Source: a bacterium
GTDB lineage: Bacteria > Zhuqueibacterota > Zhuqueibacteria > Oceanimicrobiales > Oceanimicrobiaceae
Assembly (NCBI GenBank): GCA_046757525.1
Contig: JBHHYI010000011.1
Span: 1-46,000 of the forward strand
Direction: 5' to 3'
Length of the DNA: 46,000 nucleotides
Within the stretch, counting starts at the first letter, position 1. Each line of letters opens with the position of its first letter. The position numbers were made by a program, and so were the translations under genes. Positions 10,138 through 43,524 of this stretch are shown here, piece by piece. The notes beneath the pieces are model-generated. The model worked only from the letters and a program-made list of their open reading frames with translations. It ran no database searches and was not told the origin of the DNA.

Positions 10138-10143
10138 AAATGA

Positions 10144-11100: not shown

Positions 11101-11114
11101 TTTTTCCTAAGCGT

Positions 11115-12338: not shown

Positions 12339-12348
12339 GGTTTGGTCT

Positions 12349-17095: not shown

Positions 17096-17098
17096 TGT

Positions 17099-19340: not shown

Positions 19341-19421
19341 TTGTTTCTCCTGTCTTAACCGTTTTATCCTTCTCATTTAATTTGTCTAAGAATTTTGCGG
19401 CACGGTTACTAAACTTAATTT

Positions 19422-19619: not shown

Positions 19620-19705
19620 GGTTGTGCTCCATTATTTCAGACGTATGCTCATGCTTAAAATTCTAAATTATGAGAAAGACTAAAATGAAAATCGATTTTT
19701 CCTTG

Positions 19706-20644: not shown

Positions 20645-20991
20645 AACTTAAGTATCGATTTATCGAAAATTTAAGCAATTTCTTGCAACTTTGCAACTAA
20701 GTTTTTTGTAACAGTTCACCCGGTAGCGATCGTTAAGGATATTTATCCTGAACGTAAATTAATAGGGAACATCTGTTCTCGCAGCAGTCTCGATGGGGAT
20801 AAATATCCCGACTTAATGTGCGTTCAGCATAAACATACTGAACGATCCATCTACGGCCTGAACTGTTACAGTTTTTTGAATGTGAATTTGGTTCAGACTC
20901 AGGGAGGGATTCAGCGATAGGGGCACGGGGCATCCAGCACCGGGACGGAATCGTTTAGGTTTTTCCGCAGAGACCATCAGTTCCCTTGGCT

Positions 20992-21948: not shown

Positions 21949-21968
21949 CAGTCAGCTTGTTTAAGGCC

Positions 21969-22817
21969 TTATTTGATCTGTTCCCGCTCAACCCTCGGAT
22001 GATTCAGACTGCTCCAGTAGATTTTTTTGGCATTGTCGGGGAGCTTTAGTTTAAATTTTTTTGCAGGAATGTGCTTGTTCACTTTTTGCCTGGTGTAATA
22101 AACCGTCACTCTCTCTTTGGCGCGAGGCCGAGTTAAGCGAATCGTCTTCGGCAGCATCAGGCCTTTAGTCTTGTGGATGCGGCGAAACTCCTTGGTCAAA
22201 ATGAGCTGGCCGCGTTCGTTGAAAAGCTCGCTTTTGGTTACGAGAAACTTTTTGGGATCGACCCACTGCTTGACATATCCCTGGCTCAACTGATTTGTCA
22301 CCACGTATTTGCCACGCACAAAATCAACAGTGGACGTTGAATCCACCAGGATTTGCAGCAGGCCGGTAAAAACTTCGTAGAGTTCCTCAGTAGTCAATTC
22401 CACCTGCAGAAAGTCCCTGAGGTCCAAAGTCTTAACTTCACCGTAATAGAAAGTATTTTCTCGCGGGGCATAAGCACCAAAGAGTTGGTGGTTCATGAAC
22501 AACACGCCAATGTCGATTCCTAACATGGCCTCTGTCTTGACCAGCACGGAATCCGGCATGTTCAAATAAACGCTTGCAAAGCCGTTGTAGCCGTGGCCAG
22601 GCAACTCAATGACTACGCGAGCTTTGCCTTCAAAGCTCAGTAATTTCAGGTAGTTGTCCCTGACCTTGGCCTGTAAGAACTGGGGACTGATTTGAGAGAG
22701 ATCGGGAGTTTTGTTTTTGAAAGACGAAGCGCAGTGAATAGAAAAAACACTTACAACCAAAAAAAATAAGTACAGGCTCATCGAGGGGGCCAATCGCCTG
22801 CAATCTTTTTTTGCCAA
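21969..22817 (-). CDS. DUF4292-like putative lipoprotein
   Basis: Hydrophobic N-terminus with lipobox-like 'IHCASS'; 'DSVLVK...LGID'; directly follows a TPR gene, as often seen in Bacteroidota. Confidence 0.65.
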   Translation of the reverse strand: MAKKDCRRLAPSMSLYLFFLVVSVFSIHCASSFKNKTPDLSQISPQFLQAKVRDNYLKLLSFEGKARVVIELPGHGYNGFASVYLNMPDSVLVKTEAMLGIDIGVLFMNHQLFGAYAPRENTFYYGEVKTLDLRDFLQVELTTEELYEVFTGLLQILVDSTSTVDFVRGKYVVTNQLSQGYVKQWVDPKKFLVTKSELFNERGQLILTKEFRRIHKTKGLMLPKTIRLTRPRAKERVTVYYTRQKVNKHIPAKKFKLKLPDNAKKIYWSSLNHPRVEREQIK

Positions 22818-28216: not shown

Positions 28217-29458
28217 TCAATCCGGATGATCGCTCTTGTTGATGAATCTCTTCAGATAGGATCCAAATTTGTTGATGGGAGAGTTGGTCTCTTTGCCGTT
28301 CAGGACCTGAGGCAGGACGCTTTCTGTGGATTCAGCCTCCGGCTTCTTTGACTGGGTCAATTCGGCCTTCAGCACCTTTTCAAAGTTTCTGGAAAGCGCC
28401 TGGATGACTTCTTCGTCCGCGCGGGAGCCTGCCAATTGATTGTTTAAGTATTTCAAGGATTGATCCAACAGATCCAAAATATATTCCGGCACCGGTTCAG
28501 TTTCCAACAATTTTTCGTACGTTAGTTTCTTGAGCGAATCGATAATCAGAATCAGATTCTGGTCCTTGGAGCTCTTAACCGACGTCTGCAAGGCGTCGCA
28601 AGCCTGGCGAATTTCCTGAACTGCTTCCACCGACAATGGGACCATCTGCAGTTCATAGACTGCCTGTTCTATGGTATCCAGGTATCTCTTGTCCTCTGAG
28701 GTGAGGCTTTGTCTTTCAACCACGGTGGCTTCCTGCCGGCGCCCTTGTGAATGGCTGGGATCATTAACCGGGCTCGACAAGACGGTGGTCACCGGCAGAC
28801 GTTCGGGATCGTCAGATTTCTTCGCCTCTGATCCCGCGGAACCCGCTAAGGTCATAATGGAATCGAGCTCCCGAATATCGAACAGATCATCGATTTCGTT
28901 GCCATTTTCCCTGCCGGAAGTCCTGGTCTTTCCATCGCCGTCGTCGAGGAATCGAAACGGCAGCTCCAACTGTCTGGCAAACAAGCGATCAAATTTCCTA
29001 CCTAATCTGTCGGTGCAGGCCTTGATTTTTTTTTGTCGAATTTCTACCTGTTCGTCGAGTTTCTCCATATTCATCTGCAACTCAATGCGCTCTTCCATTT
29101 CCAGCACTTTGTGGATGGCACCAGCAGCAATCTGTACTTTTGAAATAAAGTCCTTGTCCAACGTGTACTGTTGCTGCAAAATCCGGCCGGCGGCAGACTT
29201 GATTTTTTCGGCGATGTTTTCAACCCCCTCATACCCGTGAATCATTGCCAGGTCTTCAATAGACTGGGCTGCATTTTTGAGTTTGCTTAGCCCCTGGCTC
29301 TTGCCTTCACCATTTGCCAGTCCTGACAAAGACAAATCGATTTGCTGGAGATGCCTGCGGACCTCGTCAAAATAATAGTACCTTAGTGAAGTTCTACCGT
29401 CAGAAGACTGTGGAACTGGCAATGAATCTGGGGGGCCTTCGACCATATATATTTTCAT
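28217..29458 (-). CDS. Hypothetical protein with two His-less Hpt-like helical bundles and a C-terminal amphipathic helix
   Basis: 'YFDEVRRHLQQIDLSL...LKNAAQSIEDLAMIHGYEGVENIAEKI' follows the Hpt pattern with Q at the His site; a second, weaker repeat; C-terminal 'INKFGSYLKRFINK'. Confidence 0.7.
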   Translation of the reverse strand: MKIYMVEGPPDSLPVPQSSDGRTSLRYYYFDEVRRHLQQIDLSLSGLANGEGKSQGLSKLKNAAQSIEDLAMIHGYEGVENIAEKIKSAAGRILQQQYTLDKDFISKVQIAAGAIHKVLEMEERIELQMNMEKLDEQVEIRQKKIKACTDRLGRKFDRLFARQLELPFRFLDDGDGKTRTSGRENGNEIDDLFDIRELDSIMTLAGSAGSEAKKSDDPERLPVTTVLSSPVNDPSHSQGRRQEATVVERQSLTSEDKRYLDTIEQAVYELQMVPLSVEAVQEIRQACDALQTSVKSSKDQNLILIIDSLKKLTYEKLLETEPVPEYILDLLDQSLKYLNNQLAGSRADEEVIQALSRNFEKVLKAELTQSKKPEAESTESVLPQVLNGKETNSPINKFGSYLKRFINKSDHPD

Positions 29459-29479: not shown

Positions 29480-31255
29480 TTAGAACAACTTGTTGATGTA
29501 TTTTACCGCTTCGTCCACATTCGAGAATTCAGATGATCCGTTGTCTGAGAGACTTCTTTCTGCAACCGCCGACACCACGTCCGCTGGTTGCGCCTCCTCG
29601 CCCCTCAGGCGCGTCTTGTTGTCGTAAGGAACGCTTGCAGAGCTTACCGCATCTGCTGTGCTCAGCGGCAGACCGGTTTCTCGTCGCCTGCTGCTCTTAG
29701 ACTTGTTGTTGCTACCCGACGCGTCAAACAGTTGTAGAATGCCGCTCACCTTGCGCTTGAGCTCAGCCGCAGTGCTCTTCGACTTCTCATCTTCGTTGGT
29801 CAGCCCTGAGACGGTGGACGGCAGCAACCTGAACAACTCGATGACCCCTTCGGACAAGTCAAATTCGCCCTGAACCGCTTTCTCAACGATGGTGGCCATG
29901 GGGCTCATCAGCTCTGCAATGCTTTGGTAGGAAAACAGTTCTGCCGAACTGTTGATCGACGCCACAGCATTCTTTATCTCGCGCAAGTACCGCTCATTGC
30001 CGGAACGATTCCCCACAGCCAGCCCGCGAACAGCCTCCTCCAAAACATAGAGATCTGCCCGGGTCTCCTCCAGAAATATCTCTGAGAACACCCTGCCGCC
30101 CTGTTTTCGCGAGGTGGTTTCAGTCGTCGCTTTCTCAACGGATGCGGGCGCCTCTACTTCCCTGGCCGGCGCGATCGTCTCTGTCTGGTTATCCTGGCTC
30201 GCCCCCCCAACTTGGGCGACTTCTTGTTTCTTGATGGCCATGTCGATTTCAACTGCCGAACGCTTGGTTGTTTGCAAGCAGGTTGCAATGAGCATCACCC
30301 GTATGGAATCTTTCAGCGACTCATCAAGACGGGCTCCCCAGATGATCTTGGCAGAAGGGTCTAACCGTTGCGAAACGACTTGCATGACCGTCCTTGCTGA
30401 TTTCAGTGACATCTCCTGGCCACCCGTGATGTTGATGAGTGCGCTTCTGGCTCCGGTAATGTCCACATCTAACAACGGATTTTGCAGGGCTTTTTCCGCA
30501 GCTACTTTGGCAACATCTTCCGGCGGGCTGTCGCCATCGCTCTCTCCGAGTCCAATCATGGCCATGCCACCATTCTGCATGATGGTGCGCACATCGGCAA
30601 AATCCAAATTCACCAACCCTTTTTCAGTCACCAGCTCGGTTATGCCCTTGACGGCATTCACGAGAATCTCATCGGCGACTTTGAAGGCTGCGCCTAAGGG
30701 CATATCCGGGACCATTTCCAGAAGCCGGTCGTTCTGCACCACGATGACCGTATCCACTTTAGATCGCAGTTGCTCCAGACCTTTCTGAGCGTTCTCCCAG
30801 CGAATGATGCCCTCCTCGGTAAACGGCAGCGTGACCACCGCAATGGTCAAAGCGCCACTTCTCTTGGCTATTTCAGCAATAATCGGTGCGGAGCCCGTGC
30901 CGGTGCCACCTCCCAATCCACAAGTGATGAAAACCAAATCGCTGTTGGCAATCATCGCCTCTATTTCTGCTGCGTTTTCTCTTGCGGAGTCTTCCCCGAT
31001 CTTGGGATCGCTGCCGGCACCCAGACCATTGGTAATATCTTTGCCGATAAGGACCTTGTGGTCAGCCGTGGCAAACAACAGGTCCTGCGCATCGGTGTTA
31101 ATGGCAATAGCCTCCACACCTTTAATGCCGACTTCCAATAATCTCGAAATGGTGTTGTTGCCCGCGCCACCGGCGCCTATGATATGAATTCTGGTCTTGT
31201 GAGCCCCTAATACGGCTTCCAGTTCTTTGTCTGTCTCTACACAATGCTTGGTCAT
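29480..31255 (-). CDS. ftsZ: FtsZ-family GTPase (archaeal FtsZ1-like) fused to a C-terminal His-less Hpt-like domain
   Basis: 'GAGGAGNN', 'NTDAQ', 'GLGAG', tubulin signature 'GGGTGTG', 'PF..EG..R', T7 loop 'NLDFADV'; ~250 aa extension containing 'FSEIFLEETRADL...'; ATG at 31255 (alternative TTG at 31282). Confidence 0.93.
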   Translation of the reverse strand: MTKHCVETDKELEAVLGAHKTRIHIIGAGGAGNNTISRLLEVGIKGVEAIAINTDAQDLLFATADHKVLIGKDITNGLGAGSDPKIGEDSARENAAEIEAMIANSDLVFITCGLGGGTGTGSAPIIAEIAKRSGALTIAVVTLPFTEEGIIRWENAQKGLEQLRSKVDTVIVVQNDRLLEMVPDMPLGAAFKVADEILVNAVKGITELVTEKGLVNLDFADVRTIMQNGGMAMIGLGESDGDSPPEDVAKVAAEKALQNPLLDVDITGARSALINITGGQEMSLKSARTVMQVVSQRLDPSAKIIWGARLDESLKDSIRVMLIATCLQTTKRSAVEIDMAIKKQEVAQVGGASQDNQTETIAPAREVEAPASVEKATTETTSRKQGGRVFSEIFLEETRADLYVLEEAVRGLAVGNRSGNERYLREIKNAVASINSSAELFSYQSIAELMSPMATIVEKAVQGEFDLSEGVIELFRLLPSTVSGLTNEDEKSKSTAAELKRKVSGILQLFDASGSNNKSKSSRRRETGLPLSTADAVSSASVPYDNKTRLRGEEAQPADVVSAVAERSLSDNGSSEFSNVDEAVKYINKLF

Positions 31256-31312
31256 TAGTTGTCTTACCTGTCTGTTGTTCAAGAGTTAGATGATTGGCTT
31301 TTCGTCATCGCT

Positions 31313-33301
31313 TCAGTGAGGATTCCTGTTGGACGCAATCCGCAATGTCCCGGCCCTGCTGGAATCCCAATCTGTTGGAACAGAATAATTCAGTTCCTGA
31401 ATTCTTGTAACGAGCTGCTTGAACTCTCTCTTCTCTGCATCTTCCAACCGCTCGACTTTCCGCAGGTGACTGTAGGCCTCCCGGATGGCCGCGGAAGTGC
31501 TTTGTGCAAGCTCGGTGTCTGTACCCATCAGATGGACAACCAGCGCTTCAATGGCTTCGGGGAGCTTGCACAGGGGTTCCAGGTTTAGCTTTACACAAAG
31601 ATTCTGGATGGATTTGGCTGTCAATTCAAGGTCTTCCAAAGCCTTCCTGTTGTTGGGCTGCTCTTGCAGTATTTGCAGCGCGTCGTCAATGAGGTTGAAG
31701 TAGAGGGCTGCTTCCTCCTTGAATACTTGAACGCCGTCGAACTTGGCTTCCTGAGTGTCCCAACTCAGACGATCAACGATTTCTTCATTCAAATCCTCGG
31801 AACGCTCCCAGGGGTCCACCGCTTCTTCCCGCATCCCAGCTTCCTCAACCGGTGAAGCTGATGTGCCGTTGGACAACTCACCAATCAATTTTTTGATTTC
31901 CACATCGTCTTCGCCTGGCAAGGTTATCTGACTGCCGGTGGCTGGATCCGACTGGTTTCTGGCGATGTTCAACTCTTGTGGCAGTCCCTGGCCTGGGCTG
32001 CCATTTGGAGTCTCCAGTGGAGTGTCCTGGACTGGATCATGGTTCACCACCGGGTCAACCGAAGGCAGCGGATTCTCTGCCGCGGGCTTTTCAGGCTTCT
32101 CTGCTGCAACAGGTTGTTCTCGATCCTCTTCCGGCGGCAGGCCCATCTTTTGAACGTGTTCTCTTATTTGGGCTTCGTCAAAACTCTCCGCTTCACTGAA
32201 ATTCAAGCGGTTCAATAAGGCTAACGTCTCCCGGATGCGCGTCAAATGCCAGCCCGCAACATCGTCAGCCCGATTCGCCGCTGGCGCGCAAAGGTGCTGG
32301 GCTTTGGTAGCGATTTGTTCAAAGGCTTCAAAGCCATAGATCATGGAGCTCTCTTTGATATTCTCAAATATGCACTGGCAGGTTTGCCAGAACTCCTGGG
32401 TTGGCAAGGTGTTGTTCAGCTTGTCAAAAGTGTACTGCAAGTCAGCCAACAGTTCTTCGATTTCATCCTGAAAGGCGTTAACGATACTGGCAGGTTCCCG
32501 GCTAACGTAATTCGATTGCGTTTGCGGGGAAAAATCTGAGCCACCTTCTTTGGCTATGTCGTAGTCAGTCCCATCCTCGGCTGAGGCTTCCCTGCCTACG
32601 GACGTGTTTTGGAGAAAATCCTTTTCCTCCTGGCCGTCGAGCTCTGAAAAGTCGGGGGGGCTCTCCAGAGGGACGTCTGTCACCGCATTCTCGGATACCG
32701 CCGAAGGTGGCTCATGATTGCTTTCATTATTCTCGGGTTCAACTATTGACTCCGCGTGGTCGCCTTGTTCCAGGGTTGGCACCGTTTCCGGCAGAGGTTC
32801 ACCAGCCAGGGTCTCGTCAGTCGCAACAGTTTCAGCAAGGTCGGTAGTCGATTCCTCGACATGCAGAACCTGACTGTTCTTCTTTTGTAGACCCAGATAA
32901 TGATCCAGCTCGAGTCTTGCTGCCTGGCTGTGCAAGGCATTCAAGGTCGTTGTCACTAACGACTGAGCCAGCCGCTCAATCTCGATTTTCATTTGCTCCG
33001 TATCTAAATCGGAGTCGCGCAAACGGCTGACACCTTGATTCAAAGTTTCGTAAAAGGTGGCAAAGCCTCTGATCTGTGCCAGCTTCTCCAATTCCACCAC
33101 TTTATTCTCGGAATTCAATATTTTGTCCAACAGGTTGCCGAACAGCAAATAATCGTCGTTGTTGGAATGGTCATGGTCGAGGATCAATTCAAGCTGATGG
33201 CTAATGCAGTAGAAAAAATAGCTCTTGGGATGGAAAAATCTCTTGATTAACTCTTTGTCAAAGTCAACATCAGACAGGACATTTTGAATTATTTCTACCA
33301 T
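31313..33301 (-). CDS. Large acidic scaffold-like protein with two His-less Hpt-like domains
   Basis: 'FQDEIEELL...IFENIKESSMIYGFEAFEQIA' and 'FKEEAALYF...PNNRKALEDLELTAKSIQNL...LEPL' separated by E/P/S-rich linkers. Confidence 0.7.
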   Translation of the reverse strand: MVEIIQNVLSDVDFDKELIKRFFHPKSYFFYCISHQLELILDHDHSNNDDYLLFGNLLDKILNSENKVVELEKLAQIRGFATFYETLNQGVSRLRDSDLDTEQMKIEIERLAQSLVTTTLNALHSQAARLELDHYLGLQKKNSQVLHVEESTTDLAETVATDETLAGEPLPETVPTLEQGDHAESIVEPENNESNHEPPSAVSENAVTDVPLESPPDFSELDGQEEKDFLQNTSVGREASAEDGTDYDIAKEGGSDFSPQTQSNYVSREPASIVNAFQDEIEELLADLQYTFDKLNNTLPTQEFWQTCQCIFENIKESSMIYGFEAFEQIATKAQHLCAPAANRADDVAGWHLTRIRETLALLNRLNFSEAESFDEAQIREHVQKMGLPPEEDREQPVAAEKPEKPAAENPLPSVDPVVNHDPVQDTPLETPNGSPGQGLPQELNIARNQSDPATGSQITLPGEDDVEIKKLIGELSNGTSASPVEEAGMREEAVDPWERSEDLNEEIVDRLSWDTQEAKFDGVQVFKEEAALYFNLIDDALQILQEQPNNRKALEDLELTAKSIQNLCVKLNLEPLCKLPEAIEALVVHLMGTDTELAQSTSAAIREAYSHLRKVERLEDAEKREFKQLVTRIQELNYSVPTDWDSSRAGTLRIASNRNPH

Positions 33302-33322
33302 TTGTACTCTTTGGTCATTTGA

Positions 33323-33766
33323 TTATGAACTAAGACTCTTTGCAAAAACCGGAGGGCCAACCTCCTCTGGCTTGATTTCATCGTGCTTGTTTTTCACAGG
33401 CGCAGGAGCTTGCAGCACCTGCCGAAGTTTGCTCAGCAACCGTTCGATATCGAGAGGCTTGGTGATCCAACTAACAACGCCCAGTTTTCTTGCCCTTTGA
33501 CGTTGTTCCGGGGTACTGTAAGCCGTCATAATGATGGTTGGCAGCGTCGGGTATAAACGCTGCAACCTCTCGTGTAAGGCCAGGCCCGAAAGGTCTGGCA
33601 GGCACAAGTCGGACAGCAGCAGATCGGTACCCGGGCAAATTTTTTCCAAAGCCGCAGTCGCGTTCTCAGCGGTTGCGACTTCATAGCCTTCTTCGCTCAA
33701 CAGCTCATACAGTCCCAGGCGCGTATTGGGGTCATCCTCGACCAGCAGGATCTTCGACAAGATCAA
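33323..33766 (-). CDS. Single-domain response regulator (REC)
   Basis: 'ILLVEDD', 'LLSDLCLP', 'MTAY', 'TKP'; start overlaps the parA stop codon. Confidence 0.9.
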   Translation of the reverse strand: MILSKILLVEDDPNTRLGLYELLSEEGYEVATAENATAALEKICPGTDLLLSDLCLPDLSGLALHERLQRLYPTLPTIIMTAYSTPEQRQRARKLGVVSWITKPLDIERLLSKLRQVLQAPAPVKNKHDEIKPEEVGPPVFAKSLSS

Positions 33767-34584
33767 ACTCCTTGTAGTTCTTCTTCCGCAGGAGCCACTT
33801 CTTCAGCAACCACTTCGCAGTGGCCGTTCTCACCCAATAGCTCCAGGGCCAGATTCATGTAGCTGGTTGCCCCCTTGCAAGTTTGGTCAAAAACAATAAC
33901 CGGCTTGCCGTGGTACGGCACTTCCGCTAACTTGATATTTCTGGGTATCATGGTGTTGAAGACCAGGCCCTGCAAGGTGTAGCGAACTTTTTCAATGACT
34001 TTTTTGGTCAAGTTGTTTCGTGTGTCCACCATGGTTAATAAGAAGCCCCGGTAAGTCAAAGCAGGATTCTTTTCATTTTTTATCAATCGGGTCATTTTCA
34101 AGAACCTTCCCAGCGCCTTCAAAGCGTAGTACTCACATTGAATCGGCACGATGAGCGAATCTGAGGCAATCAGCGCATTGTAGGTCAGATTGCCTAAGGA
34201 GGGCGGGCAATCTATTAGAATGTAGTCGTATTCGTCCTTGACGGGTTCCAGGGCGTTTCGTAACTTCACCTCTGCTGCCACGCCGATTAACTGCCTTCGT
34301 TCGTTCTCGTCCGACCAGACGTTGGTGGGAATGAATTCGAAGTTCTCCTGCCCGGTTGGGTGAATGGCTTCCTCAATGGGCGTATCGTAGATGAAAATAT
34401 CCAAAATCCCGGCTTTGATGTCGTATTTGCCGTACCCAAAGCTGGTGGCAACGCTGCCCTGGGGATCTACGTCGATCAACAAGACCTTATACCCCAAATT
34501 TGCTAAGCTTGCGCTTAGATTGACCGCGGTGGTCGTCTTTCCGACGCCTCCTTTTTGACTCGCGATGGATATGACTTCGCCCAT
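33763..34584 (-). CDS. ParA/Soj-family ATPase (no adjacent parB)
   Basis: Deviant Walker A 'QKGGVGKTTT', 'IDVDPQG', 'IDCPPSLG', 'PIQCEYYAL', 'IPRNIKLAE'; GAGGAG RBS before the ATG at 34584. Confidence 0.93.
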   Translation of the reverse strand: MGEVISIASQKGGVGKTTTAVNLSASLANLGYKVLLIDVDPQGSVATSFGYGKYDIKAGILDIFIYDTPIEEAIHPTGQENFEFIPTNVWSDENERRQLIGVAAEVKLRNALEPVKDEYDYILIDCPPSLGNLTYNALIASDSLIVPIQCEYYALKALGRFLKMTRLIKNEKNPALTYRGFLLTMVDTRNNLTKKVIEKVRYTLQGLVFNTMIPRNIKLAEVPYHGKPVIVFDQTCKGATSYMNLALELLGENGHCEVVAEEVAPAEEELQGV

Positions 34585-34614
34585 GAACAACTCCTCAAAA
34601 GATAGCTCAAGTTC

Positions 34615-35283
34615 TTAATTATAATAATATAGAAGTACTTTCCAATCTTTTAAAATGGTTCTCTTGATCTCAAATGTTTTAGAAATCATCCTGAAATTGC
34701 CCCTACTCCAATTCAAGATGTTAAAAAGAGCAGACTCGCCTTTTAACTCCCCACATTCGGCATGAATGATCTCACCGTTCTTGAAGTAAATGTTGCCTTT
34801 CTCCTTGTCCCTGGTGATCATCAAAGAAGAAGTGCGTTTTGTCGTACAATTGAATTCCACCAGTTCCCGGATTCCCGCGCTGTAGAAGTAGCCTTTGAAT
34901 CCGAATTTATCCAGATTCAGGGCCTGTAGAATGAGCTGTTTCAAATGACCGATGTCGAAAGGTTTTTCGATGTAATAGAAGCCCCCTCGCTTATCCACGG
35001 CCGTCTGAATGGCTTCGGATCCGTAGGCGGTCATGATGATGATCTTTGTCTGAGGATATTTCTGACGAATATCCATCAACAATTGCAACCCACTTCGTCC
35101 TGGCATGCGAATGTCGGAGACGACGAGGTCAAAGCGAGCCTTTTCTAAGAGTTGCCAGGCGTCATCTCCCGACAGAACACATTCAACTTCCAAAGCTCCA
35201 CACTCTTTTTCCAGGCTTTTGGCGATTCCCCAAACCAAATCTTCTTCGTCATCAACGATTAGAATTTTTTTTGCTTTTGACAC
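34615..35283 (-). CDS. Response regulator with C-terminal DUF4388 (PatA_N-like) domain
   Basis: REC 'IVDDE...SDIRMPG...MTAYG...EKPF'; C-terminal 'GFKG......ELVEF.......KGNIYFKNGEIIHAECGELKGESALFNILNW..GNF'. Confidence 0.85.
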   Translation of the reverse strand: MSKAKKILIVDDEEDLVWGIAKSLEKECGALEVECVLSGDDAWQLLEKARFDLVVSDIRMPGRSGLQLLMDIRQKYPQTKIIIMTAYGSEAIQTAVDKRGGFYYIEKPFDIGHLKQLILQALNLDKFGFKGYFYSAGIRELVEFNCTTKRTSSLMITRDKEKGNIYFKNGEIIHAECGELKGESALFNILNWSRGNFRMISKTFEIKRTILKDWKVLLYYYN

Positions 35284-35330: not shown

Positions 35331-35346
35331 TGCAATTCCCATGCCA
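35331..35346 (-). promoter_or_regulatory. sigma54 (-24/-12) promoter
   Basis: Minus strand TGGCATGGGAATTGCA = TGGCAY-N5-TTGCA with exact GG-N10-GC spacing, ~48 bp upstream of the first operon gene and just downstream of an NtrC-family gene. Confidence 0.85.
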
Positions 35347-35552: not shown

Positions 35553-36923
35553 TCACGCTATGCCATAATTTTTCATCTTTTCGCGCAAGGTGGAACGGGA
35601 AATGTTGAGGACTCTGGCGGTTTTGGATTTGTTTCCTTCATATTTCTTGAGAACTTTCATGATGTGGCGTTTTTCCATTTCCTCGAGGGAATCGCTGTCG
35701 GATGTAAACGCGGTAAATTCCGATGAAGTAGAAACCTTCGATTCTCCTTGCTGCAGCTCCAGCGGCAGATGCTCGTTTTGGATGAATTCATCGTTGCAAA
35801 GAATGATGGCTCTTTCGAGTACATTTTTCAGCTCCCGGACGTTGCCGGGCCAGCGGTAATGGAGCAATTGTTTCTGAGCCTCCGGGGCTATTCCCTTGAT
35901 CTCCTTGCCAAATTCCTTGTTGTTGGCTTCAATAAACAACATGGACAACGGCAAGATGTCTTCGGTACGGTCCCGCAGTGGCGGAATATTGATCACCATC
36001 ACCTTTAAACGGTAGAACAAGTCTTCGCGGAAAGCTTGCTGTTCAACGCAATCCTCCAGGTTACGATTGGTCGCAGCAATGATGCGCACGTCGATTTTGA
36101 TGTCGGAGGTGCCGCCGATGCGCCGGAAAGCTTGGGTCTCCAACACGCGCAACAATTTGGGCTGAATGGACATCTGCATGCTCGAGATCTCATCGAGAAA
36201 GATGGTGCCGTAGTTGGCCAACTCGAAGATGCCCTTTTTCATGCTCTTGGCGTCGGTAAAGGCTCCCTTCTCGTAGCCGAAGAGTTCACTCTCGAGCAGA
36301 TTCTCCGGGATGGCGCTGCAATTGATTTTGATCAAAGGCTTCTCGGCCCTGGCACTCCAATTATGAATGGCATTGGCCACCAATTCCTTGCCTGTGCCGC
36401 TTTCTCCTTGAATCAGCACCGAGGTCTTGGGCGTTCCGGACACCAGTTTGATGAGCTTTTTCAACTCGCGTATGGGCTTGGAATTGCCAAACAATTCGTT
36501 GTCGGGGTACTGATCTTTTTGTCGATTTCTTAATCGAGAAACCTCTCGTTTCAAGTGCTGAGCCTCGAGGGCTTTGTCCAGCACCAACTTTAACTCGTCC
36601 AATTCAAATGGTTTCATCAAATAATCATAGGCTCCCATTTTCATGGCATCGACAGCCGGTTGGGCATCCGTTAAAGCCGTAATCATGATGACCAGGATCT
36701 CGGGATCCATTTCTTTAATTGTTTTCAGAACCTTAATGCCGTTCAAGTCGGGCAGTTTGATATCCAACAAAACCAAATCAATAATGTCCTTGTGCAGAAT
36801 GGATAGGGCATGCTCGCCGTTGTAGGCAGTGCGCACTTTGTTCCCTTGCTTCCGCAACACATCAGCTAACGTTTGGCAAAGGTCTTCATTATCTTCCACG
36901 ATGAGTACATTGGCCTTAGACAT
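35553..36923 (-). CDS. sigma54-dependent response regulator (NtrC/AtoC family; REC-AAA+-Fis HTH)
   Basis: REC; 'GESGTGKE'; 'ESELFG.EKGAFTDA'; 'FLDEI'; 'WPGNVRELKN'; HTH 'NKSKTARVLNISRSTL'. Confidence 0.95.
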   Translation of the reverse strand: MSKANVLIVEDNEDLCQTLADVLRKQGNKVRTAYNGEHALSILHKDIIDLVLLDIKLPDLNGIKVLKTIKEMDPEILVIMITALTDAQPAVDAMKMGAYDYLMKPFELDELKLVLDKALEAQHLKREVSRLRNRQKDQYPDNELFGNSKPIRELKKLIKLVSGTPKTSVLIQGESGTGKELVANAIHNWSARAEKPLIKINCSAIPENLLESELFGYEKGAFTDAKSMKKGIFELANYGTIFLDEISSMQMSIQPKLLRVLETQAFRRIGGTSDIKIDVRIIAATNRNLEDCVEQQAFREDLFYRLKVMVINIPPLRDRTEDILPLSMLFIEANNKEFGKEIKGIAPEAQKQLLHYRWPGNVRELKNVLERAIILCNDEFIQNEHLPLELQQGESKVSTSSEFTAFTSDSDSLEEMEKRHIMKVLKKYEGNKSKTARVLNISRSTLREKMKNYGIA

Positions 36924-36929: not shown

Positions 36930-38831
36930 TTACTCCTCGGTAGGCAGCAATATTCTGAAGGTAGTTCCTCGATTTAGTTCGCTCTGCACATGAATGTCGC
37001 CTTCATGTTCGGTCATAATTCGATAAACAATCGAAAGCCCTAAGCCAGCCCCCTGGGGCTTTGTAGTATAAAAAGGGTTAAAAATGTTCGCAATTCTCTC
37101 CGGTTTGATGCCTTCGCCGGTATCGGTGAGATCGACCCGGGCATAAAGGGCCTGCTTGTTTTTTACCGGAAACGGTCGCCCCCTGCGGTCCACACGCCTT
37201 ATGGTAGTGATTTCCGGGCGGGCATCCAGGCGCAATTCACCGCCTTGTGGCATGGCATCCAGCGCATTTAAAACCAGGTTGATGAATATTTGTTGGATTT
37301 GGTAAAAATCCACATAAATCAACGGAAGTTCTGGATCGTAGTTCTCATAGAACTGAACCGATTGGCCCCGCAGCCGATTATCTAACAAAGCCACCGCCTC
37401 CTGCACGATTTCCTGCAAACGGTGATACTTGCGATCCGGTTGCCTTGGCTTGGCATAAGAAAAAATCGTCTTCAACAGATCGTCCATGCGGTTGACCTGA
37501 CGCACGATTCGGGACAAATACTCGCGCCTGGAGTCATCCGGTTCGATTTCTTCTTCCAGGGTCTGCGCAATGGTTTTAATGCCGGCCAACGGATTCCTTA
37601 TTTCGTGCGCAATGCCGGAAGCCAAAACGCCCATGGACGCCAGGCGATCCATGCGCTGCACTTCTGCTTGCATCTGCTTGATCTGGGTAATGTCTCGAAA
37701 TGAAATGATCGTCCCCACCCGATGATTCAGGTTGTCCATGCGTGGCGTTACGGTAAATCCCACGTAAACTCGCTGGCCATCATTTGCTGTCAGCCGCATC
37801 TCCCGATTTAACAGCGACTGTTCCGGGTCGTCAAAATTCGGGATCAATCTTCTGCATTCCTCTTCAGGAAAAATACTTTCTAACGATTTGCCTAAAACTT
37901 CCTCCAGAGTGAATCCCAACAACTCTTCAGCATTGTTATTGAACGAGGTAATCTTACGCTCCAGGTCCAGAGTAATTAAGCCGGAGCCAATACTTTGAAT
38001 GATACTTTCGTTAAAGTTTTGCAGGTCGATGATCTCTTGTTCCAGCTCCTTGCGTTCAGTGATATTGCGAGCAATGCCCACACAGCCAACGACCTGTCCT
38101 TTCTCGAAAATAGGATTGATGTTCGTGGAAAGATAGAGGGTTCCCCCGTCGTGGTTCACCCGGACTTCAAAAATGCTGGACCTACCCTGCAACGTCTTGA
38201 AAAAGTTCGTCTTCGCATTTTCACAGTCCGCAGGAACGATCAAATCAAAGAAGCTGCGTCCCAACCACTCCTCCCGTTCGCCCCCGGTGAGGTCAGGCAG
38301 CCGTCTGTTGATAAACGAGAAGTTCCCCTCCGGATTTAAGGTGAAAATCAAATCGCTGGCGTTTTCTATCAAATCTTGATATTTGTATTCGGTGCGTTTG
38401 ACCTGCTGCTCCTGTTCGCGATTCTTCGTCCGCAACTGGTGCAGGATGAACACGTTGTCGATGACATTCAGCAGTTCCTTGTTACCAAAAGGTTTCACCA
38501 GGAAGGCACTCAGACCCATGTTAAAGAGCGCTTCCCGTTCCACCTCATCTTCAGATTTGGCCGTGAGCATAATAATAGGAATTTCGCGCACGAGCTTGTA
38601 TTTGGGATCGCTGACCATTGTTTGCATGAAATCAAAGCCGTTCATCTGAGGCATCATGTAATCCAATATGATTAAATGCGGCTTCCTGGCCAAAAGCAGC
38701 TGCAAACCGGTCTCTCCAGAAGTAGCCGGAATGAACATGTAGCCTGCTTTTCGTAAAACAATGCCTGCAATTTCCAACATGTCGGGATCGTCGTCTACAA
38801 ACAAGATTGCTTTATTCCTGGCCATCTTCAT
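36930..38831 (-). CDS. Cytoplasmic histidine kinase REC-PAS-PAS-HisKA-HATPase (NtrB/AtoS-like)
   Basis: N-terminal REC, two PAS domains, 'IAHEIRNPL', 'NLVLNALDAM', 'DTGEGI', 'PFYTTKPQGAGLGL'. Confidence 0.93.
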   Translation of the reverse strand: MKMARNKAILFVDDDPDMLEIAGIVLRKAGYMFIPATSGETGLQLLLARKPHLIILDYMMPQMNGFDFMQTMVSDPKYKLVREIPIIMLTAKSEDEVEREALFNMGLSAFLVKPFGNKELLNVIDNVFILHQLRTKNREQEQQVKRTEYKYQDLIENASDLIFTLNPEGNFSFINRRLPDLTGGEREEWLGRSFFDLIVPADCENAKTNFFKTLQGRSSIFEVRVNHDGGTLYLSTNINPIFEKGQVVGCVGIARNITERKELEQEIIDLQNFNESIIQSIGSGLITLDLERKITSFNNNAEELLGFTLEEVLGKSLESIFPEEECRRLIPNFDDPEQSLLNREMRLTANDGQRVYVGFTVTPRMDNLNHRVGTIISFRDITQIKQMQAEVQRMDRLASMGVLASGIAHEIRNPLAGIKTIAQTLEEEIEPDDSRREYLSRIVRQVNRMDDLLKTIFSYAKPRQPDRKYHRLQEIVQEAVALLDNRLRGQSVQFYENYDPELPLIYVDFYQIQQIFINLVLNALDAMPQGGELRLDARPEITTIRRVDRRGRPFPVKNKQALYARVDLTDTGEGIKPERIANIFNPFYTTKPQGAGLGLSIVYRIMTEHEGDIHVQSELNRGTTFRILLPTEE

Positions 38832-40381
38832 CAGACCACAGGTCGTTTCATTTGAGGCGATACGGGTAAGGTAAAATAGAATTTGCTGCCTTCATTGGGC
38901 CTGGAAGTGACGCCCAATTCGCCTCCGTGCAATTCAATTAATTTCTTAGAAAGACTCAAACCGACTCCGACACCGCCATAAATACGCGTTGGCGAGCTAT
39001 CCCCTTGCCTGAATTCATGGAAGATTTTTTCCTGGTCATCAACTGGGATGCCGATACCCGTGTCGGACACATAGAATTTGACCGCAGACGGGGCGCGTTC
39101 CGCACCTACTTCCACGCTGCCGTCGTGAGTAAACTTGATCGCGTTGCCAACCAAAATCACCAGTACCTGGTAAATGCGTCGAAAGTCAACATACAAGAGG
39201 GGCAAGTTTTTGTCACAATGCCGCTTCAGGGCCAGGCCGTTGTTCTTGGCAATGGGCGCAACGGTGCCAAGCGTCGCATCGATCAAATCGTAAGGCGAGC
39301 AAAACTCATATTCGAGTTTCAACTGGTTGCTCTTGATTTTTGAGAGGTCTAATATTTTTTGCACCAGTTCCAGCAGGTTGGAAGCACAGCTTTTTATGTT
39401 TTCCAGGGCAGAAAGCTGGCGTTCGTTGAGTATGCCGTACACGCTGTCCAGCAACAATTCAGAATAGCCCAGGATGCCATTCAATGGGGTGCGAAATTCG
39501 TGGCTGATGTTAGAAACGAATTCCGTTTGCACCCGGGTGCTTTCTTCCAGGCGCATGTTTTTCGCCTGGATCTCAATGCTCAACTGTTTGATTTTCGCGT
39601 CCCGCTCTTCCAGTATCTTCTGAGCTTTTTTTCTTTCGCGAATGTCCCGCGAAATCACCTCGAAACCCACCAGTTTCTTGTGCTTCAGAACGGGTGAAAT
39701 ACTCAGCTCAACGGGAATCAACGCATTGCCTTTTGTTTTGATTTCCAACTCTAACTGCTTATCCCAACGCAAGTTCTTATGTTTTCTAAGCTGACTTCTC
39801 ATGATCCTGTCACCGTCTTCTGGCAGGATGTAGCTGATGTGTTTGTGCAAGAGTTCGCCTCTTGAATATCCAGTGAGTTCTTCAGCCTTGCGGTTTACGA
39901 AGGTAAACAGCCCATTCTTATCGTGAAAGGAGATGGCATCCCGCGCATTCTCAACAAACTCGATGAAGCGCCGGGTGGCGGCGTCTAACAAAGTCGACCT
40001 GTTTTTGGCCAACAAGGCGTCTTGTACGATCTGTGGCAGAGCCTCCAGGTTTTCAGTCGATTTGACGATGTAGTCCAAAGCTCCGCACTTCATGGCCTTG
40101 ACCGCAGCCTCCTCATTGCCGGCGCCGGTAACAATGATGAACGGTGTGCTCAGGCCGTTCTCACGGGCAAGCTCTAAGAAATCGAAGGCATCCATGTGAG
40201 GAAGAACTAAATCGAGCAGCAGCAGTGAGTATTTCTTTTGCGCCAACCGTTCCAGGGCCAACTGCCCGGTTTGCACCCATTCCAAGGCCACCCGATTCCC
40301 CGCGCTCTGGAAGCTTTTGAGAATCAGTTCCGCATGATCCTCGTTGTCTTCTACCATGAGAATCGTGTTCTTCTCGTTCAA
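38831..40381 (-). CDS. Cytoplasmic histidine kinase REC-PAS-HisKA-HATPase
   Basis: REC 'MVEDN..LLDL..VTG..VKS'; PAS; 'SHEFRTPLNGILG'; 'GNAIKFT'; 'DTGIGI'; 'GVGLSLS'. Confidence 0.93.
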   Translation of the reverse strand: MNEKNTILMVEDNEDHAELILKSFQSAGNRVALEWVQTGQLALERLAQKKYSLLLLDLVLPHMDAFDFLELARENGLSTPFIIVTGAGNEEAAVKAMKCGALDYIVKSTENLEALPQIVQDALLAKNRSTLLDAATRRFIEFVENARDAISFHDKNGLFTFVNRKAEELTGYSRGELLHKHISYILPEDGDRIMRSQLRKHKNLRWDKQLELEIKTKGNALIPVELSISPVLKHKKLVGFEVISRDIRERKKAQKILEERDAKIKQLSIEIQAKNMRLEESTRVQTEFVSNISHEFRTPLNGILGYSELLLDSVYGILNERQLSALENIKSCASNLLELVQKILDLSKIKSNQLKLEYEFCSPYDLIDATLGTVAPIAKNNGLALKRHCDKNLPLLYVDFRRIYQVLVILVGNAIKFTHDGSVEVGAERAPSAVKFYVSDTGIGIPVDDQEKIFHEFRQGDSSPTRIYGGVGVGLSLSKKLIELHGGELGVTSRPNEGSKFYFTLPVSPQMKRPVV

Positions 40382-40394
40382 GGCTAATCAGCCC

Positions 40395-41054
40395 TCAATC
40401 GTCCATCTCTATTCTGTTCATGATGCGCTTGGGTCCCACATCCTTGCTCGTTTTCTCCGCATCGATCTTCTTGAGAAGCTTTCTACCACAATTGTAAATG
40501 GCCATCAAATCGAGTTGCTGTCGTTCGTTCAGTTCTCCTTCCACACCCTCTAAAAGGGATTTCGAAAGACCAACAATCGAATTGACGGAATCCTGCAATT
40601 CTTCTTGAAAAACGCCCGGATGGGAGCCCTGAATAGTCCTTTCGGTCATCGCCTTTTTTCTTGCACGAGCTAATTCGATTACATTTTGTATGACAGCTAT
40701 CAATTCTTTGTGACCAAAGGGTTTCTTCAGATAGGCCCACAGGCCTAATTTGAACAAATACCTGATTTCATCAAAACTGCCGTCCCAGGCCGTCAGAATT
40801 ACGACGGGTGTGGATCGTACTTTTTCGAATGATTTGTCTGTCGCAATGGTACGAATGAATTCATCTCCTTTGACATCTGGCAAAAGATAGTCCAGGATGA
40901 TTACGTCGGGCCGGTGCGATTTCATCTTCTCGAACCCTTCCAGCGCCGTGTTGGCCGATAGGAATTGGAAGCCTGCGTTTTCAACAACTTGTTGACCAAT
41001 TGTTAGCATGTCCCTGTCATCGTCGATCAAAAGAATCTTGTGTTTGTTCATCAC
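40395..41054 (-). CDS. Response regulator fused to a His-less DHp (HisKA-like) domain
   Basis: Intact REC; the C-terminus aligns without gaps to the neighbouring kinase DHp with H replaced by E; no ATPase domain. Confidence 0.8.
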   Translation of the reverse strand: MMNKHKILLIDDDRDMLTIGQQVVENAGFQFLSANTALEGFEKMKSHRPDVIILDYLLPDVKGDEFIRTIATDKSFEKVRSTPVVILTAWDGSFDEIRYLFKLGLWAYLKKPFGHKELIAVIQNVIELARARKKAMTERTIQGSHPGVFQEELQDSVNSIVGLSKSLLEGVEGELNERQQLDLMAIYNCGRKLLKKIDAEKTSKDVGPKRIMNRIEMDD

Positions 41055-41066
41055 ACCCGAGTCGAT

Positions 41067-42563
41067 TTAGTTGGGGCTGAGATTTACCATATACTCATCG
41101 GTTTGTTCCAAAGCCATGCCGTTGGTCTTGGGCAGGGTAACCGTAAAGGTCGACCCTTCGCCAAGTCGGCTCCTAACCTGGACTTTCCCGCCATGGATCT
41201 CGATGATTTCTTTCACCAGGGAGAGCCCTAAACCAGAACCGGTGATGTCGCGAACCTTTTCGTTGTCGGAAGCGCGATAGAATTTGTCGAAGATGCGTGC
41301 CACCGACTTCTCCGAAATGCCAAATCCAGTGTCTTCAAATTCAACGCTCAAATCATTTTCATTGTCTTTGATGCGCACGAAAACATGGGCATTTTCGGGA
41401 CTGTATTTTACGGCATTCGAATACAGGTTTAGGATGACCTGTTCCATCATATCGCAATCCACATTGATCGTTGAGATGGACGGTGGCGTTTGCAGGGTTA
41501 CTTTTATGTGCTTCTTCTGGGCCAATTGAGAATTGAAATCCAACACTTTTTCAACAAGAAATTTCAAATCCACTGGCGACTTGTGAACCTGACTCTTGCC
41601 GGCCTCGATCTTGGAAATATCCAAAAATTTGTTGATGAGCTCGCTCAAACGGTTGGATTCTTTGAGAATGATGGCTGCGTATTCTTCCGATTGTTCACGA
41701 GAGGCGGGCGGATCCAACAACAGTTCGCTGAAGCCAGAAATAGAAGTGAGAGGCGATCGCAACTCATGGGCCACCAGAGAGACCAGTTCTGTTTTCATGC
41801 GATCGATCTCTTTCTCCTTAGTGATGTCTCTCAAGACTGTTACGATGCCCATCAATTCCCGTTTGTCGTTCAGGATCCGTGCTGCCCGCGCTTGTAGAAC
41901 GATTTCCTTCCAGCCCTGGTTTGGCTTGATGTTGATTTCGATTGACTCGTACTTCATTTTTTCGCGCGACTTGAAATCGCGAATGAATTTGAACAGTCTT
42001 CTGTTGGGGATCATCTTTTCAATGGGTTGCTCCACAACATTCTTGTCCAAAAGGTCGAACCATTGCTCCGCAACGTAGTTGATCAGCACGATTCTGTGTG
42101 TGGCATCGGTAACGATGACGCCGTCGGCGATATTTTTCAAAATGGTTTCGGTCTTGTTTTTTTCATTGATTATTTTGTTTAAATTCATGTAGTACAGGCG
42201 GCGCAACTCTTCGGTCATGTAATTGAAAATTTTTGCCAGCCGACCAATTTCATCGTCGGACTCCACCTTGACTTTGTGAGAAAAATTCCCCCTGGCGATT
42301 TCGGTGGCACTCTTGATGAAATGGGTGATGGGCTGCACGATGTTCTTGGTAAAGTAGTAGGTCCCTAACGCTGCCAGCACCAACGCCAGGCACAAGAGGC
42401 CGTAAAAAACCAGCGACGATTCGCGCGCTGTTCCTGGCGCTATGCCCTTCTCGATGTAGAAGAAGTACATCCAGGAGAGCGTTAGAGGCAGAACCGCTAC
42501 CAACAAAGTCAACGCGAATAGTTTCTTAAACAGCGTGTTTGTTTTAAGATTGATGAGCTTCAT
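41067..42563 (-). CDS. Membrane histidine kinase HAMP-PAS-HisKA-HATPase (WalK/PhoR-like)
   Basis: Two TMs with a short loop; HAMP 'DEIGRLA..FN.M'; PAS; 'AHELRSPLTSI'; 'SNAVKYS'; 'GSGLGL'; ATG at 42563 preferred. Confidence 0.93.
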   Translation of the reverse strand: MKLINLKTNTLFKKLFALTLLVAVLPLTLSWMYFFYIEKGIAPGTARESSLVFYGLLCLALVLAALGTYYFTKNIVQPITHFIKSATEIARGNFSHKVKVESDDEIGRLAKIFNYMTEELRRLYYMNLNKIINEKNKTETILKNIADGVIVTDATHRIVLINYVAEQWFDLLDKNVVEQPIEKMIPNRRLFKFIRDFKSREKMKYESIEINIKPNQGWKEIVLQARAARILNDKRELMGIVTVLRDITKEKEIDRMKTELVSLVAHELRSPLTSISGFSELLLDPPASREQSEEYAAIILKESNRLSELINKFLDISKIEAGKSQVHKSPVDLKFLVEKVLDFNSQLAQKKHIKVTLQTPPSISTINVDCDMMEQVILNLYSNAVKYSPENAHVFVRIKDNENDLSVEFEDTGFGISEKSVARIFDKFYRASDNEKVRDITGSGLGLSLVKEIIEIHGGKVQVRSRLGEGSTFTVTLPKTNGMALEQTDEYMVNLSPN

Positions 42564-42573
42564 AAATTCCCCT

Positions 42574-43524
42574 CTATGAATCTGCAAAAATCGTGTTTCT
42601 GCCCGCTTGTTTGGCGCGATACAAGCGTTGATCCGCCATGTTGACTAAGGTGTCAAATTCTTCGCCATCTTCCGGAAAGGTAGCCACGCCCATGCTGATG
42701 GTGATTTTCCCATTCGGCTGCGTATCTTCATAGTCAAAATCCTTTTCTTCCACCAGTTTCCTGATCTTCTCCGCAACAATCCTGGCAGCGTTTTTGTTCG
42801 TTTCAACCAGTACTAACACGAATTCCTCGCCGCCGTATCGGGCAGCTAAATCGATGTTGCGAATATTATCCATCAAAAGGCGTGCAATGTTTTTCAATAC
42901 CACATCCCCGGCCGGATGGCCGTTGGTGTCGTTGAAATGTTTGAAATAATCGATGTCAATCATGGCCACCGACACATTGATCTTGTGCCGTCGGGCTCGA
43001 CGCAATTCTTGCTGCAGATGCTCTTTAAAATAACGGTAATTATACAGGCCGGTCAAACCATCGGTTATGGCCAACTGGCGCAACTCCTCTTTAGCTTTTT
43101 GCAACTGCAGAACCTTGTCCTGAAGTTCATCGTGCAAGTACTTTATTCGCAACAACGAACGCACCCGGGCCAGCAATTCCAGCTTGTTGAAGGGCTTGCT
43201 GATGAAATCGTCTGCACCGGATTCCATGCCTTTGATCTTGTCTTGCAGCTCATTGAGCGCGGTCACCATGATCACCGGGATAAAATTGGTTTCTTCATCC
43301 TTCTTGATGATATTGCAAACCTCAAACCCGTTTTTCTTGGGCATCATGACATCCAACAGGACCAGGTCGGGCCGGGATTCTCGAAGCTGTTCAAGGGCCT
43401 CTTCGCCGTCACTTGCGGAGATTACGCGGTAACCTTCAGAAGACAGATAGGTGGTAAGCAACTGGATGTTCACAGGAACGTCATCAACGACGAGTATGGT
43501 CTTGATTTTGGAGTCAGGTGCCAT
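42574..43524 (-). CDS. REC-GGDEF diguanylate cyclase (PleD/WspR-like)
   Basis: REC; coiled coil; 'DGLTGLYN'; 'DIDYFK.FND..GH..GD'; I-site RNID; active site GGEEF. Confidence 0.95.
   Translation of the reverse strand: MAPDSKIKTILVVDDVPVNIQLLTTYLSSEGYRVISASDGEEALEQLRESRPDLVLLDVMMPKKNGFEVCNIIKKDEETNFIPVIMVTALNELQDKIKGMESGADDFISKPFNKLELLARVRSLLRIKYLHDELQDKVLQLQKAKEELRQLAITDGLTGLYNYRYFKEHLQQELRRARRHKINVSVAMIDIDYFKHFNDTNGHPAGDVVLKNIARLLMDNIRNIDLAARYGGEEFVLVLVETNKNAARIVAEKIRKLVEEKDFDYEDTQPNGKITISMGVATFPEDGEEFDTLVNMADQRLYRAKQAGRNTIFADS

Follow-up and report, generated by a model that had tools for sequence, protein, structure and literature searches.

How did a bacterium that keeps a conventional ftsZ in its division gene cluster come to carry a second ftsZ of archaeal type, and what would such a protein do? 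The question is raised by a 46,000-nucleotide stretch of a genome of the bacterial phylum Zhuqueibacterota (GenBank assembly GCA_046757525.1, contig JBHHYI010000011.1, positions 1 to 46,000), hereafter the window. The gene, at 29480..31255, encodes a protein of 591 residues counted from an ATG at 31255 and joins an archaeal FtsZ1-type GTPase core to a domain of the histidine phosphotransfer (HPt) type that lacks the histidine; the gene, its domains and the neighbouring operon and sensor genes described below all lie on the minus strand. FtsZ is generally treated as vertically inherited within each domain of life. Our analysis indicates that this gene was very probably transferred from archaea, and that it belongs to an FtsZ variant with an undescribed operon which is real, ancient and phylum-wide.

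The GTPase core

A preliminary description of this DNA, made from the sequence alone, had placed an archaeal-looking FtsZ at 30250..31255. That span corresponds to the GTPase core with its N-terminal helix (the first 335 residues; Pfam Tubulin and FtsZ_C, TIGR00065), while the protein itself extends for a further 256 residues, to 29480. An upstream TTG at 31282 would lengthen the open reading frame (29480-31282) to 600 residues. The core scores 154 bits against PF00091 and 106 bits against PF12327, both over the curated cut-offs, and 407.7 bits against TIGR00065, for which the cut-off is 295.2. The motifs listed in the preliminary description (DKELEAVL, GAGGAGNNTISRL, VFITCGLGGGTGTGSAP, AFKVADEILVNAVKGITEL, NLDFAD, LLDVDITGA and IIWGA) are all found in the reading frame. 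The GTP-binding motif GGGTGTG (30893-30913) and the T7 loop NLDFAD (30593-30610), both rightly described as intact, are conserved in the form GGGTG[TS]G in 156 of 157 homologues and in the form NxDxAD in 155. From these catalytic motifs the protein is predicted to bind and hydrolyse GTP and to form filaments. The bacterial C-terminal peptide (DIPxFLR-type), reported as absent from this protein, matched none of the 157 homologues, and neither did the GID motif, which is the C-terminal motif of archaeal FtsZ1 according to the part of the literature that defines the context and motifs of FtsZ1 (PMC8178401).

An AlphaFold model of the 591-residue protein, built from 80 sequences with a mean predicted local distance difference test score of 82.9, shows in order an N-terminal helix (residues 2-18, the extra helix noticed earlier), the FtsZ fold, a linker and a helical bundle modelled with confidence (residues 384-518), followed by a disordered stretch and a short last helix. 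Foldseek searches with the model returned the FtsZ of Methanocaldococcus jannaschii as all nine top matches. Among solved structures, M. jannaschii FtsZ1 was also the top match to the sequence at 398 bits, compared with 279 bits for the best bacterial chain, and at columns separating three archaeal FtsZ1 groups from bacterial FtsZ the family to which the gene belongs is archaeal at 10 and bacterial at 1, which bears out the assignment of the core to the archaeal FtsZ1 type. The core is closer to FtsZ than to CetZ or TubZ: the last four rows of the Protein Data Bank search, 4B45, 3ZID and 4B46 (which we take to be CetZ) and RepX (4EI7), scored 31-60 bits against 236-398 for the FtsZ chains. CetZ and TubZ sequences were left out of the final trees.

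Phylogenetic position and source of the core

Trees were computed with FastTree from 331 cores and with IQ-TREE from 52 chosen rows and 326 columns under the LG+G4 and LG+C20 models. In the FastTree phylogeny one clade (support 98), here called the family, holds all 69 long forms and 7 representatives, and it lies on the archaeal side of a split supported at 100, outside FtsZ2. Under LG+C20 the family (100/100), the family with an archaeal sister group (100/99), the bacteria (100/100) and FtsZ2 (100/99) were all recovered; under LG+G4 the family received 96/84 and the other three groupings the same values as under LG+C20. Support for family plus sister was unchanged, at 100/99, with 19 sister rows included. 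Under LG+C20 the family falls inside the sister group (89/79), which is monophyletic in just 8% of 200 bootstrap trees. The core thus stands apart from bacterial FtsZ, and an approximately unbiased (AU) test rejects its union with the phylum's own FtsZ (p 4e-7), on which ground duplication of the host's own ftsZ is rejected as its origin. Two degenerate copies and one divergent paralogue, described below, were left out of the final trees since they split the family in a quick tree, a long-branch effect.

Identity to the window core is 64.6% for the sister group, 59.9% for Nanoarchaeota-type, 56.8% for Aenigmarchaeota and 52.7% for Thermoplasmatota sequences, compared with 47.6% for FtsZ2 and 45.8% for the phylum's own canonical FtsZ (45-46% for bacterial FtsZ). 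The sister group was found by searching proteins of at most 398 residues with a profile of 18 N-terminal halves, which gave 120 proteins, 117 of them long enough for a tree: 6 proved to be pieces of family proteins, 90 grouped with Nanoarchaeota- or Aenigmarchaeota-type FtsZ1 and 21 made up the sister group. Its proteins have 350-383 residues and a GID-type C-terminal end, and two are named 'archaeon'. In a second search the sister group appeared as 36 clusters above 640 bits, the next score being 581, and a member of one cluster carries the name Candidatus Undinarchaeales archaeon; the Undinarchaeales are described as a DPANN lineage in the sections of PMC7414124 that bear on them. At three sister loci, all from metagenomes, an FKBP gene lies upstream, and at two of them archaeal secE and spt5 lie downstream, one of these also with archaeal L11 and RqcH; the third locus was unreadable with the open reading frame filter. 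These secE-spt5-L11 surroundings are the usual neighbourhood of archaeal ftsZ1.

We conclude that the donor probably stood on the Undinarchaeota side of the archaea, within DPANN. The likeness to euryarchaeal FtsZ1 pointed out in the preliminary description holds for solved structures, where M. jannaschii is the best match, but according to the trees and the identities the closest archaeal relatives are not euryarchaeal, and a euryarchaeal donor was dropped as first choice on those two grounds, with named Methanococci and Thermococci not in the trees. Taxon labels for two other relative clusters were Heimdall/Hodarchaeota and Methanobacteria. A search of 371 Aenigmatarchaeota-type genomes with the relative P0291 (E<=1e-150) gave no matches and, being without a positive control, speaks weakly against that phylum as donor. 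The top match of the second search, P0411, was set aside as a sister candidate and is of Thermoplasmatota type. The proteins P0140 (511 residues) and P0146 (518 residues) carry long tails in which the HPt-like domain is missing, and they fall outside the family; both are archaeal-side FtsZ whose low-complexity tails end in a hydrophobic-basic segment, possibly a membrane-binding helix. Two tandem FtsZ1-type genes were seen in Thermoplasmata genomes (L009-L013).

Transfer between domains followed by repurposing, which the preliminary description had proposed, is therefore the best-supported reading, given the 100/99 support for family and sister and the fusion to a histidine-less HPt domain. 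Its scope is different from what was first supposed, since the transfer is ancient and phylum-wide and not an event in one genome, and the donor was DPANN-like and not Methanocaldococcus-like.

Distribution in the phylum

When the core was searched against 167 genomes of the phylum (E<=1e-85), 106 gave a match and the scores were bimodal: 97 genomes reached at least 340 bits, canonical copies scored at most 300 bits, and 9 genomes had a canonical copy only. The archaeal-type copy is thus found in 97 of 167 genomes, in 63 of 105 near-complete genomes and in 17 of 26 families; the count of 97 takes in the window genome, G000, and one unpublished genome, G162. Families f7, f8 and f9, with 41 genomes, gave no match of archaeal-type strength. 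Record names make KSB1 (Zhuqueibacterota) the most probable identity of the phylum, since four homologues are labelled 'candidate division KSB1' and one locus belongs to Ca. Coneutiohabitans (Zhuqueibacterales); the submitter labels Caldithrix, Calditrichaceae, Calditrichaeota and Cytophagia are also found on records whose proteins fall in the same gene clade. Because family labels on a tree of 65 copies need 17 changes, against a minimum of 16 and a shuffled mean of 44.9, one early uptake followed by vertical inheritance is indicated by the sequences. The tail domain was found in 13 of the 150 best representatives at 50% identity, 11 of which had sufficient length for the tree or were represented by an identical locus; the seven of these that were placed all fall in the family clade.

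Some genomes deviate from this pattern. In family f4, degenerate FtsZ-like proteins of 510-520 residues without NLDFAD are encoded at L282:514-2046 (-) and L283:1381-2943 (+), in a slot ordered receiver, transglycosylase, ftsZ. One genome (G020) has a third FtsZ on a long branch (L286:1456-2568, +) which groups with the phylum's canonical copies and therefore represents a duplication of its own. No tubulin-family match was found in one genome that is 97% complete (G083), and another (G089) has only two short tubulin-family pieces, in different frames, at C2:211449-211854; either faulty assembly or a lost ftsZ may lie behind this.

The histidine-less HPt tail

The tail contains a CheA-P1-like HPt helical bundle (29717..30082, residues 392-513) in which alanine takes the place of the phospho-accepting histidine. 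A profile built from 20 tails matched the P1 chains of CheA with E values from 3e-8 to 2e-5 overall (2LD6, 2.9e-8; 1TQG, 5.6e-8; 1I5N, 4.9e-6). The Pfam Hpt model matches 14 of the 20 tails weakly (E<=1), the best at 6.5e-7 and the window tail at 0.05. Atlas neighbours of the tail are all Hpt clusters, and one Atlas lead, at 0.88, points to a cluster with 11% FimL_C. A hidden Markov model (HMM) of the tail found the domain in 156 of 157 distinct long forms; at the histidine position the six commonest residues, S, T, K, A, I and L, account for 134 of the 156 domains. A histidine occurs within four positions of it in 24 of the rows, a number that matches the counts at other columns (-4, -3 and +3). 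After a disordered linker the protein ends in a short helix (29486..29518, residues 580-590), which is not present in all families and could possibly contact the membrane or a partner.

Over the whole host genome the tail HMM matches only the FtsZ-HPt protein and its two neighbours. The upstream protein of 662 residues (31313..33301) consists of a helical N-terminal domain and two HPt-like repeats with disordered linkers between them; the tail HMM finds the repeats at residues 525-638 (E 1.8e-7) and 277-385 (E 0.76), and two repeats are present in most homologues. In its predicted model three helical domains are seen, with CheA P1 matches at template modelling scores of 0.74-0.81 by target and E values of about 0.1-0.2, and searches with the N-terminal domain found no family match. 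The downstream protein of 413 residues (28217..29458) has two HPt-like repeats (tail HMM E 2.3e-6 and 0.015), which are also found in its homologues. Five histidine-less HPt-like domains are therefore encoded in three adjacent genes. A complex predicted between the tail (residues 43-186 of alignment A2) and the receiver (A5) scored 0.20 and 0.02 against a mark of 0.32, the controls not having been folded, so that these scores count neither for nor against such a contact.

A CheA dimerisation domain is found in 66 of the 167 genomes, in none of the 19 genomes of family f15 (12 of which carry archaeal-type ftsZ), and gave no match in the host genome. As it is missing from the host and from all 19 f15 genomes, a chemotaxis link has been discarded as a requirement.

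Operon, promoter and host genome

The first gene after the predicted promoter encodes a receiver with a DUF4388 domain (34615..35283), which is PATAN-like and which we take to be equivalent to PATAN. Residues D11, D12, D57, K107 and W18 of the receiver are invariant in 34 of 34 aligned receivers and the acidic pocket is kept; the DUF4388 domain is absent from many homologues. It is followed by a ParA-family ATPase (33763..34590), of which a second copy, 47% identical, is encoded on contig C97, then by a single-domain receiver (33323..33766), the 662-residue protein, the ftsZ gene and the 413-residue protein. A sigma-54 promoter-like -24/-12 site (35331..35346) lies about 63 bases ahead of the first receiver gene, and beyond it is a sigma-54 activator with receiver, AAA+ and helix-turn-helix domains (35553..36923). 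The sensor block (36930..43524), conserved upstream of the activator in relatives, comprises a receiver-PAS-PAS kinase (36930-38831), a receiver-PAS kinase (38831-40381), a receiver (40395-41054), a HAMP-PAS kinase (41067-42587) and a receiver-GGDEF protein (42574-43524). Together with rpsT and guaB, which also adjoin, these genes show the neighbourhood to be bacterial, as had been stated at the outset.

Across 43 loci, the window included and some of them cut by contig ends, the upstream receiver is present at 34, the adjacent sigma-54 activator at 34, ParA at 16, a lytic transglycosylase at 19 and the upstream repeat protein at 20. The strict -24/-12 pattern (GG-N10-GC) occurs in 14 of 29 upstream regions, where 0.02 were expected. 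A relaxed pattern, with one more base allowed and picked after the misses had been seen, occurs in 32 of 35 against an expectation of 0.29, and all 11 of the 11 new loci tested afterwards have it as well. From this conserved site and the adjacent activator the operon is predicted to be sigma-54-dependent. The transglycosylase slot corresponds to 33301-33323 in the window; the host genome has three homologues of this enzyme, on contigs C47, C25 and C6, and the one on C47 adjoins another sigma-54 activator and a kinase. Loci of the f15 type (L200, L201, L206, L207 and L006-L008) have a solitary gene encoding proteins of 700-900 residues with longer linkers, and no receiver, ParA or activator nearby.

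The host genome is a metagenome bin of 438 contigs, 96.9% complete and 1.0% contaminated, in which no match to SepF was found. It has two tubulin-family genes. The canonical ftsZ on contig C78 follows rsmH, a penicillin-binding protein gene, murF, mraY, ftsW, murG, ftsQ and ftsA, and its product ends in DIPAYLRR; located in this division and cell wall cluster, it is the division protein of the host. The G+C content of the archaeal-type core is 0.55, compared with 0.44-0.57 over most of the window. In sequencing run X1 a single contig covers 26082-40000 of the window at an even depth of 29.7, and in run X2 a contig covers 24000-32071, so that the check on read coverage speaks for an intact, non-chimeric locus. 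Because the bin may itself derive from both runs, which would then not be independent of the window DNA, the gene order conserved in many other genomes is the stronger argument against a chimera. Elsewhere in the window, at 8764-22817, polysaccharide and glycosylation genes encode a flippase, four family 2 glycosyltransferases, a sulfatase, YfhO, a CDP-alcohol phosphotransferase and a methyltransferase, and a low-G+C stretch is found within this region near 19001-20000.

Proposed role and alternative explanations

The explanation that we favour, with some reserve, is uptake of a DPANN ftsZ1 joined to its use as a signal-induced accessory filament in local wall remodelling or a change of division. 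An ancestor of this KSB1-type phylum would have acquired ftsZ1 from a DPANN archaeon of, or near, the Undinarchaeota and retained its own ftsZ for division. In the new copy the archaeal C-terminal peptide would have been swapped for a CheA-P1-like domain minus the histidine, and the gene would have been put under a sigma-54 promoter. In the two steps that the sequence supports, the adjacent kinases would activate the adjacent sigma-54 activator and so turn the operon on, and the FtsZ-HPt protein would bind and hydrolyse GTP. Filaments might then form separately from the ring held by FtsA, without an FtsA or SepF tether. The co-expressed receiver may find non-catalytic docking sites in the tail and in the repeats of the flanking proteins, with its phosphorylation state setting the place or time of the filament; a parallel is FimL, a histidine-less HPt protein reported in passages of PMC3019171 and PMC10519157 to recruit PilG to the pole. 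Finally, ParA would position the filament and the lytic transglycosylase open the wall, leading to conditional local remodelling or altered division. A more ambitious version, which we regard as possible but speculative, makes the system a phylum-wide inducible cytoskeletal machine built on DPANN FtsZ1, serving a developmental programme (a special division, budding or an appendage) without described counterpart; on this version the transfer would also record an early physical contact of Undinarchaeota-like archaea with these bacteria.

Several observations weigh against the favoured explanation. At 18 loci of families f20-f26 only the receiver and ftsZ follow the activator, and at four f15 loci the ftsZ-HPt gene stands alone, because of which ParA and wall remodelling are not obligatory. 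The lytic transglycosylase, present at 13 of 15 further loci from the window's family (in the remaining two the sequence stops short of the slot), is absent from the window. In the two f4 genomes checked, the same slot holds a degenerate copy that lacks the T7 motif and is probably what remains of this system after decay, or a version of it adapted to another task. As to origin, AU tests on this single gene of 326 columns fail to reject a sister relation of the family to the whole of bacterial FtsZ (p 0.084 under LG+G4, 0.134 under LG+C20), the family with FtsZ2 (p 0.083), and the sister group with other DPANN without the family (p 0.109). The archaeal backbone of the trees is poorly supported, the trees contain no named Methanococci, Thermococci, Micrarchaeota, Altiarchaeota or Huberarchaeota, and the Undinarchaeales label belongs to one record in one sub-branch.

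With the same archaeal origin, the protein could instead act as a signal-induced brake on, or modifier of, the normal Z-ring, co-polymerising with or capping canonical FtsZ and loosening the ring from the membrane in stress or differentiation. We consider this unlikely, though it accords with the lack of the bacterial C-terminal peptide in all 157 homologues and for the minimal receiver-ftsZ operons and solitary genes. It has precedents in an overexpressed truncated Agrobacterium paralogue that inhibits division (passages of 10.1101/2025.09.29.679267) and in PatA, which is said in part of PMC7380572 to destabilise the divisome. The identity to host FtsZ of about 45% nevertheless makes co-polymerisation uncertain, a catalytic set so strongly conserved throughout is in keeping with a polymer that works by itself, and the presence in many families of dedicated ParA, transglycosylase and repeat proteins points to an apparatus of its own.

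It is less likely still that the system is a signalling scaffold only, a FimL-like hub that places receivers and the kinase/GGDEF block and has no role in wall or division. The five HPt-like domains in three adjacent proteins, the invariant surface tryptophan of the receiver and the FimL precedent would suit such a hub, but the lytic transglycosylase in the operon at 19 of 43 loci, and nearly throughout the same-family loci, would not, and this enzyme persists beside the degenerate f4 copy.

An origin without archaea-to-bacteria transfer, in which the family is an ancient basal bacterial paralogue that survives in this phylum alone, or the archaeal sister group received the gene from these bacteria, seems to us very improbable. 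It draws on the AU results that leave family and bacteria as one side and on a 2023 survey whose relevant text states that FtsZ was not detected to have passed between the two domains (PMC9871819); in the supplements of that survey, only two KSB1 proteins are among the entries listed, and both are canonical by motifs. The AU test also keeps family, sister and bacteria together (p 0.234). Yet when the tree is constrained, the long stem of the bacteria joins beside the family via a near-zero branch, the family is still next to the sister group and FtsZ2 sits deep in FtsZ1, because of which we read the failure to reject a basal position as low power and root attraction and not as bacterial origin. 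The diagnostic columns and the native archaeal ftsZ1 context and C-terminal motif of the sister genes also speak for transfer. An assembly chimera or contaminating archaeal DNA, which a bin of this many contigs might suggest, is refuted for practical purposes by the gene order shared among independent genomes, the G+C content in range, the contigs spanning the locus and the low contamination.

Significance

If DPANN uptake is accepted, an archaeal FtsZ1 has become a lasting part of the genomes of a bacterial phylum, in 17 of its 26 families, contrary to a published view that the gene has not crossed between the domains. The transfer would provide a relative date, placing the donor lineage before the diversification of the phylum, and hints that DPANN archaea and bacteria have exchanged a core gene. 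It would also present a tubulin-family polymer fused directly to a two-component docking domain, and the protein, its tail and the receiver, being small and soluble, lend themselves to routine in vitro assays. No description of an FtsZ-HPt system was found in a literature search that did not cover subscription papers. Three supplements of PMC7414124 contain no FtsZ or KSB1; its sister-group tables (Supplementary Data 20-22), apparently outside these three, could already contain the link.

Comparison with known systems

Archaeal FtsZ1 (M. jannaschii FtsZ1, PDB 1FSZ/1W58, and DPANN FtsZ1) shares with the protein the GTPase core, the N-terminal helix, the diagnostic residues and the tree position, the nearest being the Undinarchaeales-containing DPANN group. 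The protein differs from it in its bacterial host, in the lost GID end, in a tail of about 250 residues with the HPt-like domain, and in a gene located away from secE-spt5-L11 in a genome without a SepF match. Canonical bacterial FtsZ has the same fold, GTP-binding motif and T7 loop, and both pass TIGR00065, but the protein is only 45-46% identical to it, lies outside the bacterial clade, has no DIPxFLR peptide and is not encoded beside ftsA.

The tail has the helical bundle and the A-x-H-x-L-K-G-x-A register of CheA P1/HPt domains (PF01627; PDB 2LD6, 1TQG, 1I5N), and with FimL of Pseudomonas it shares the replacement of the acceptor histidine, sequence kinship to FimL having been assessed only via the Atlas lead. 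In contrast to both, the domain here is carried on a tubulin-family GTPase, and the host genome gave no match to a CheA dimerisation domain. The Hyphomicrobiales FtsZ1/FtsZ3 proteins are likewise second FtsZ copies without a C-terminal peptide beside an essential one, but they are truncated duplicates, whereas the present protein is archaeal in type and longer by a signalling domain; the relevant passages of that study (10.1101/2025.09.29.679267) deal with duplicated bacterial paralogues and mention neither archaea nor KSB1. PatA of Anabaena, as portrayed in part of PMC7380572, combines PATAN and receiver domains and resembles the first gene product of the operon in tying a receiver and a DUF4388/PATAN-type domain to division proteins. 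Here the domain order is reversed, many homologues lack the domain, and it is a dedicated FtsZ copy that serves as partner.

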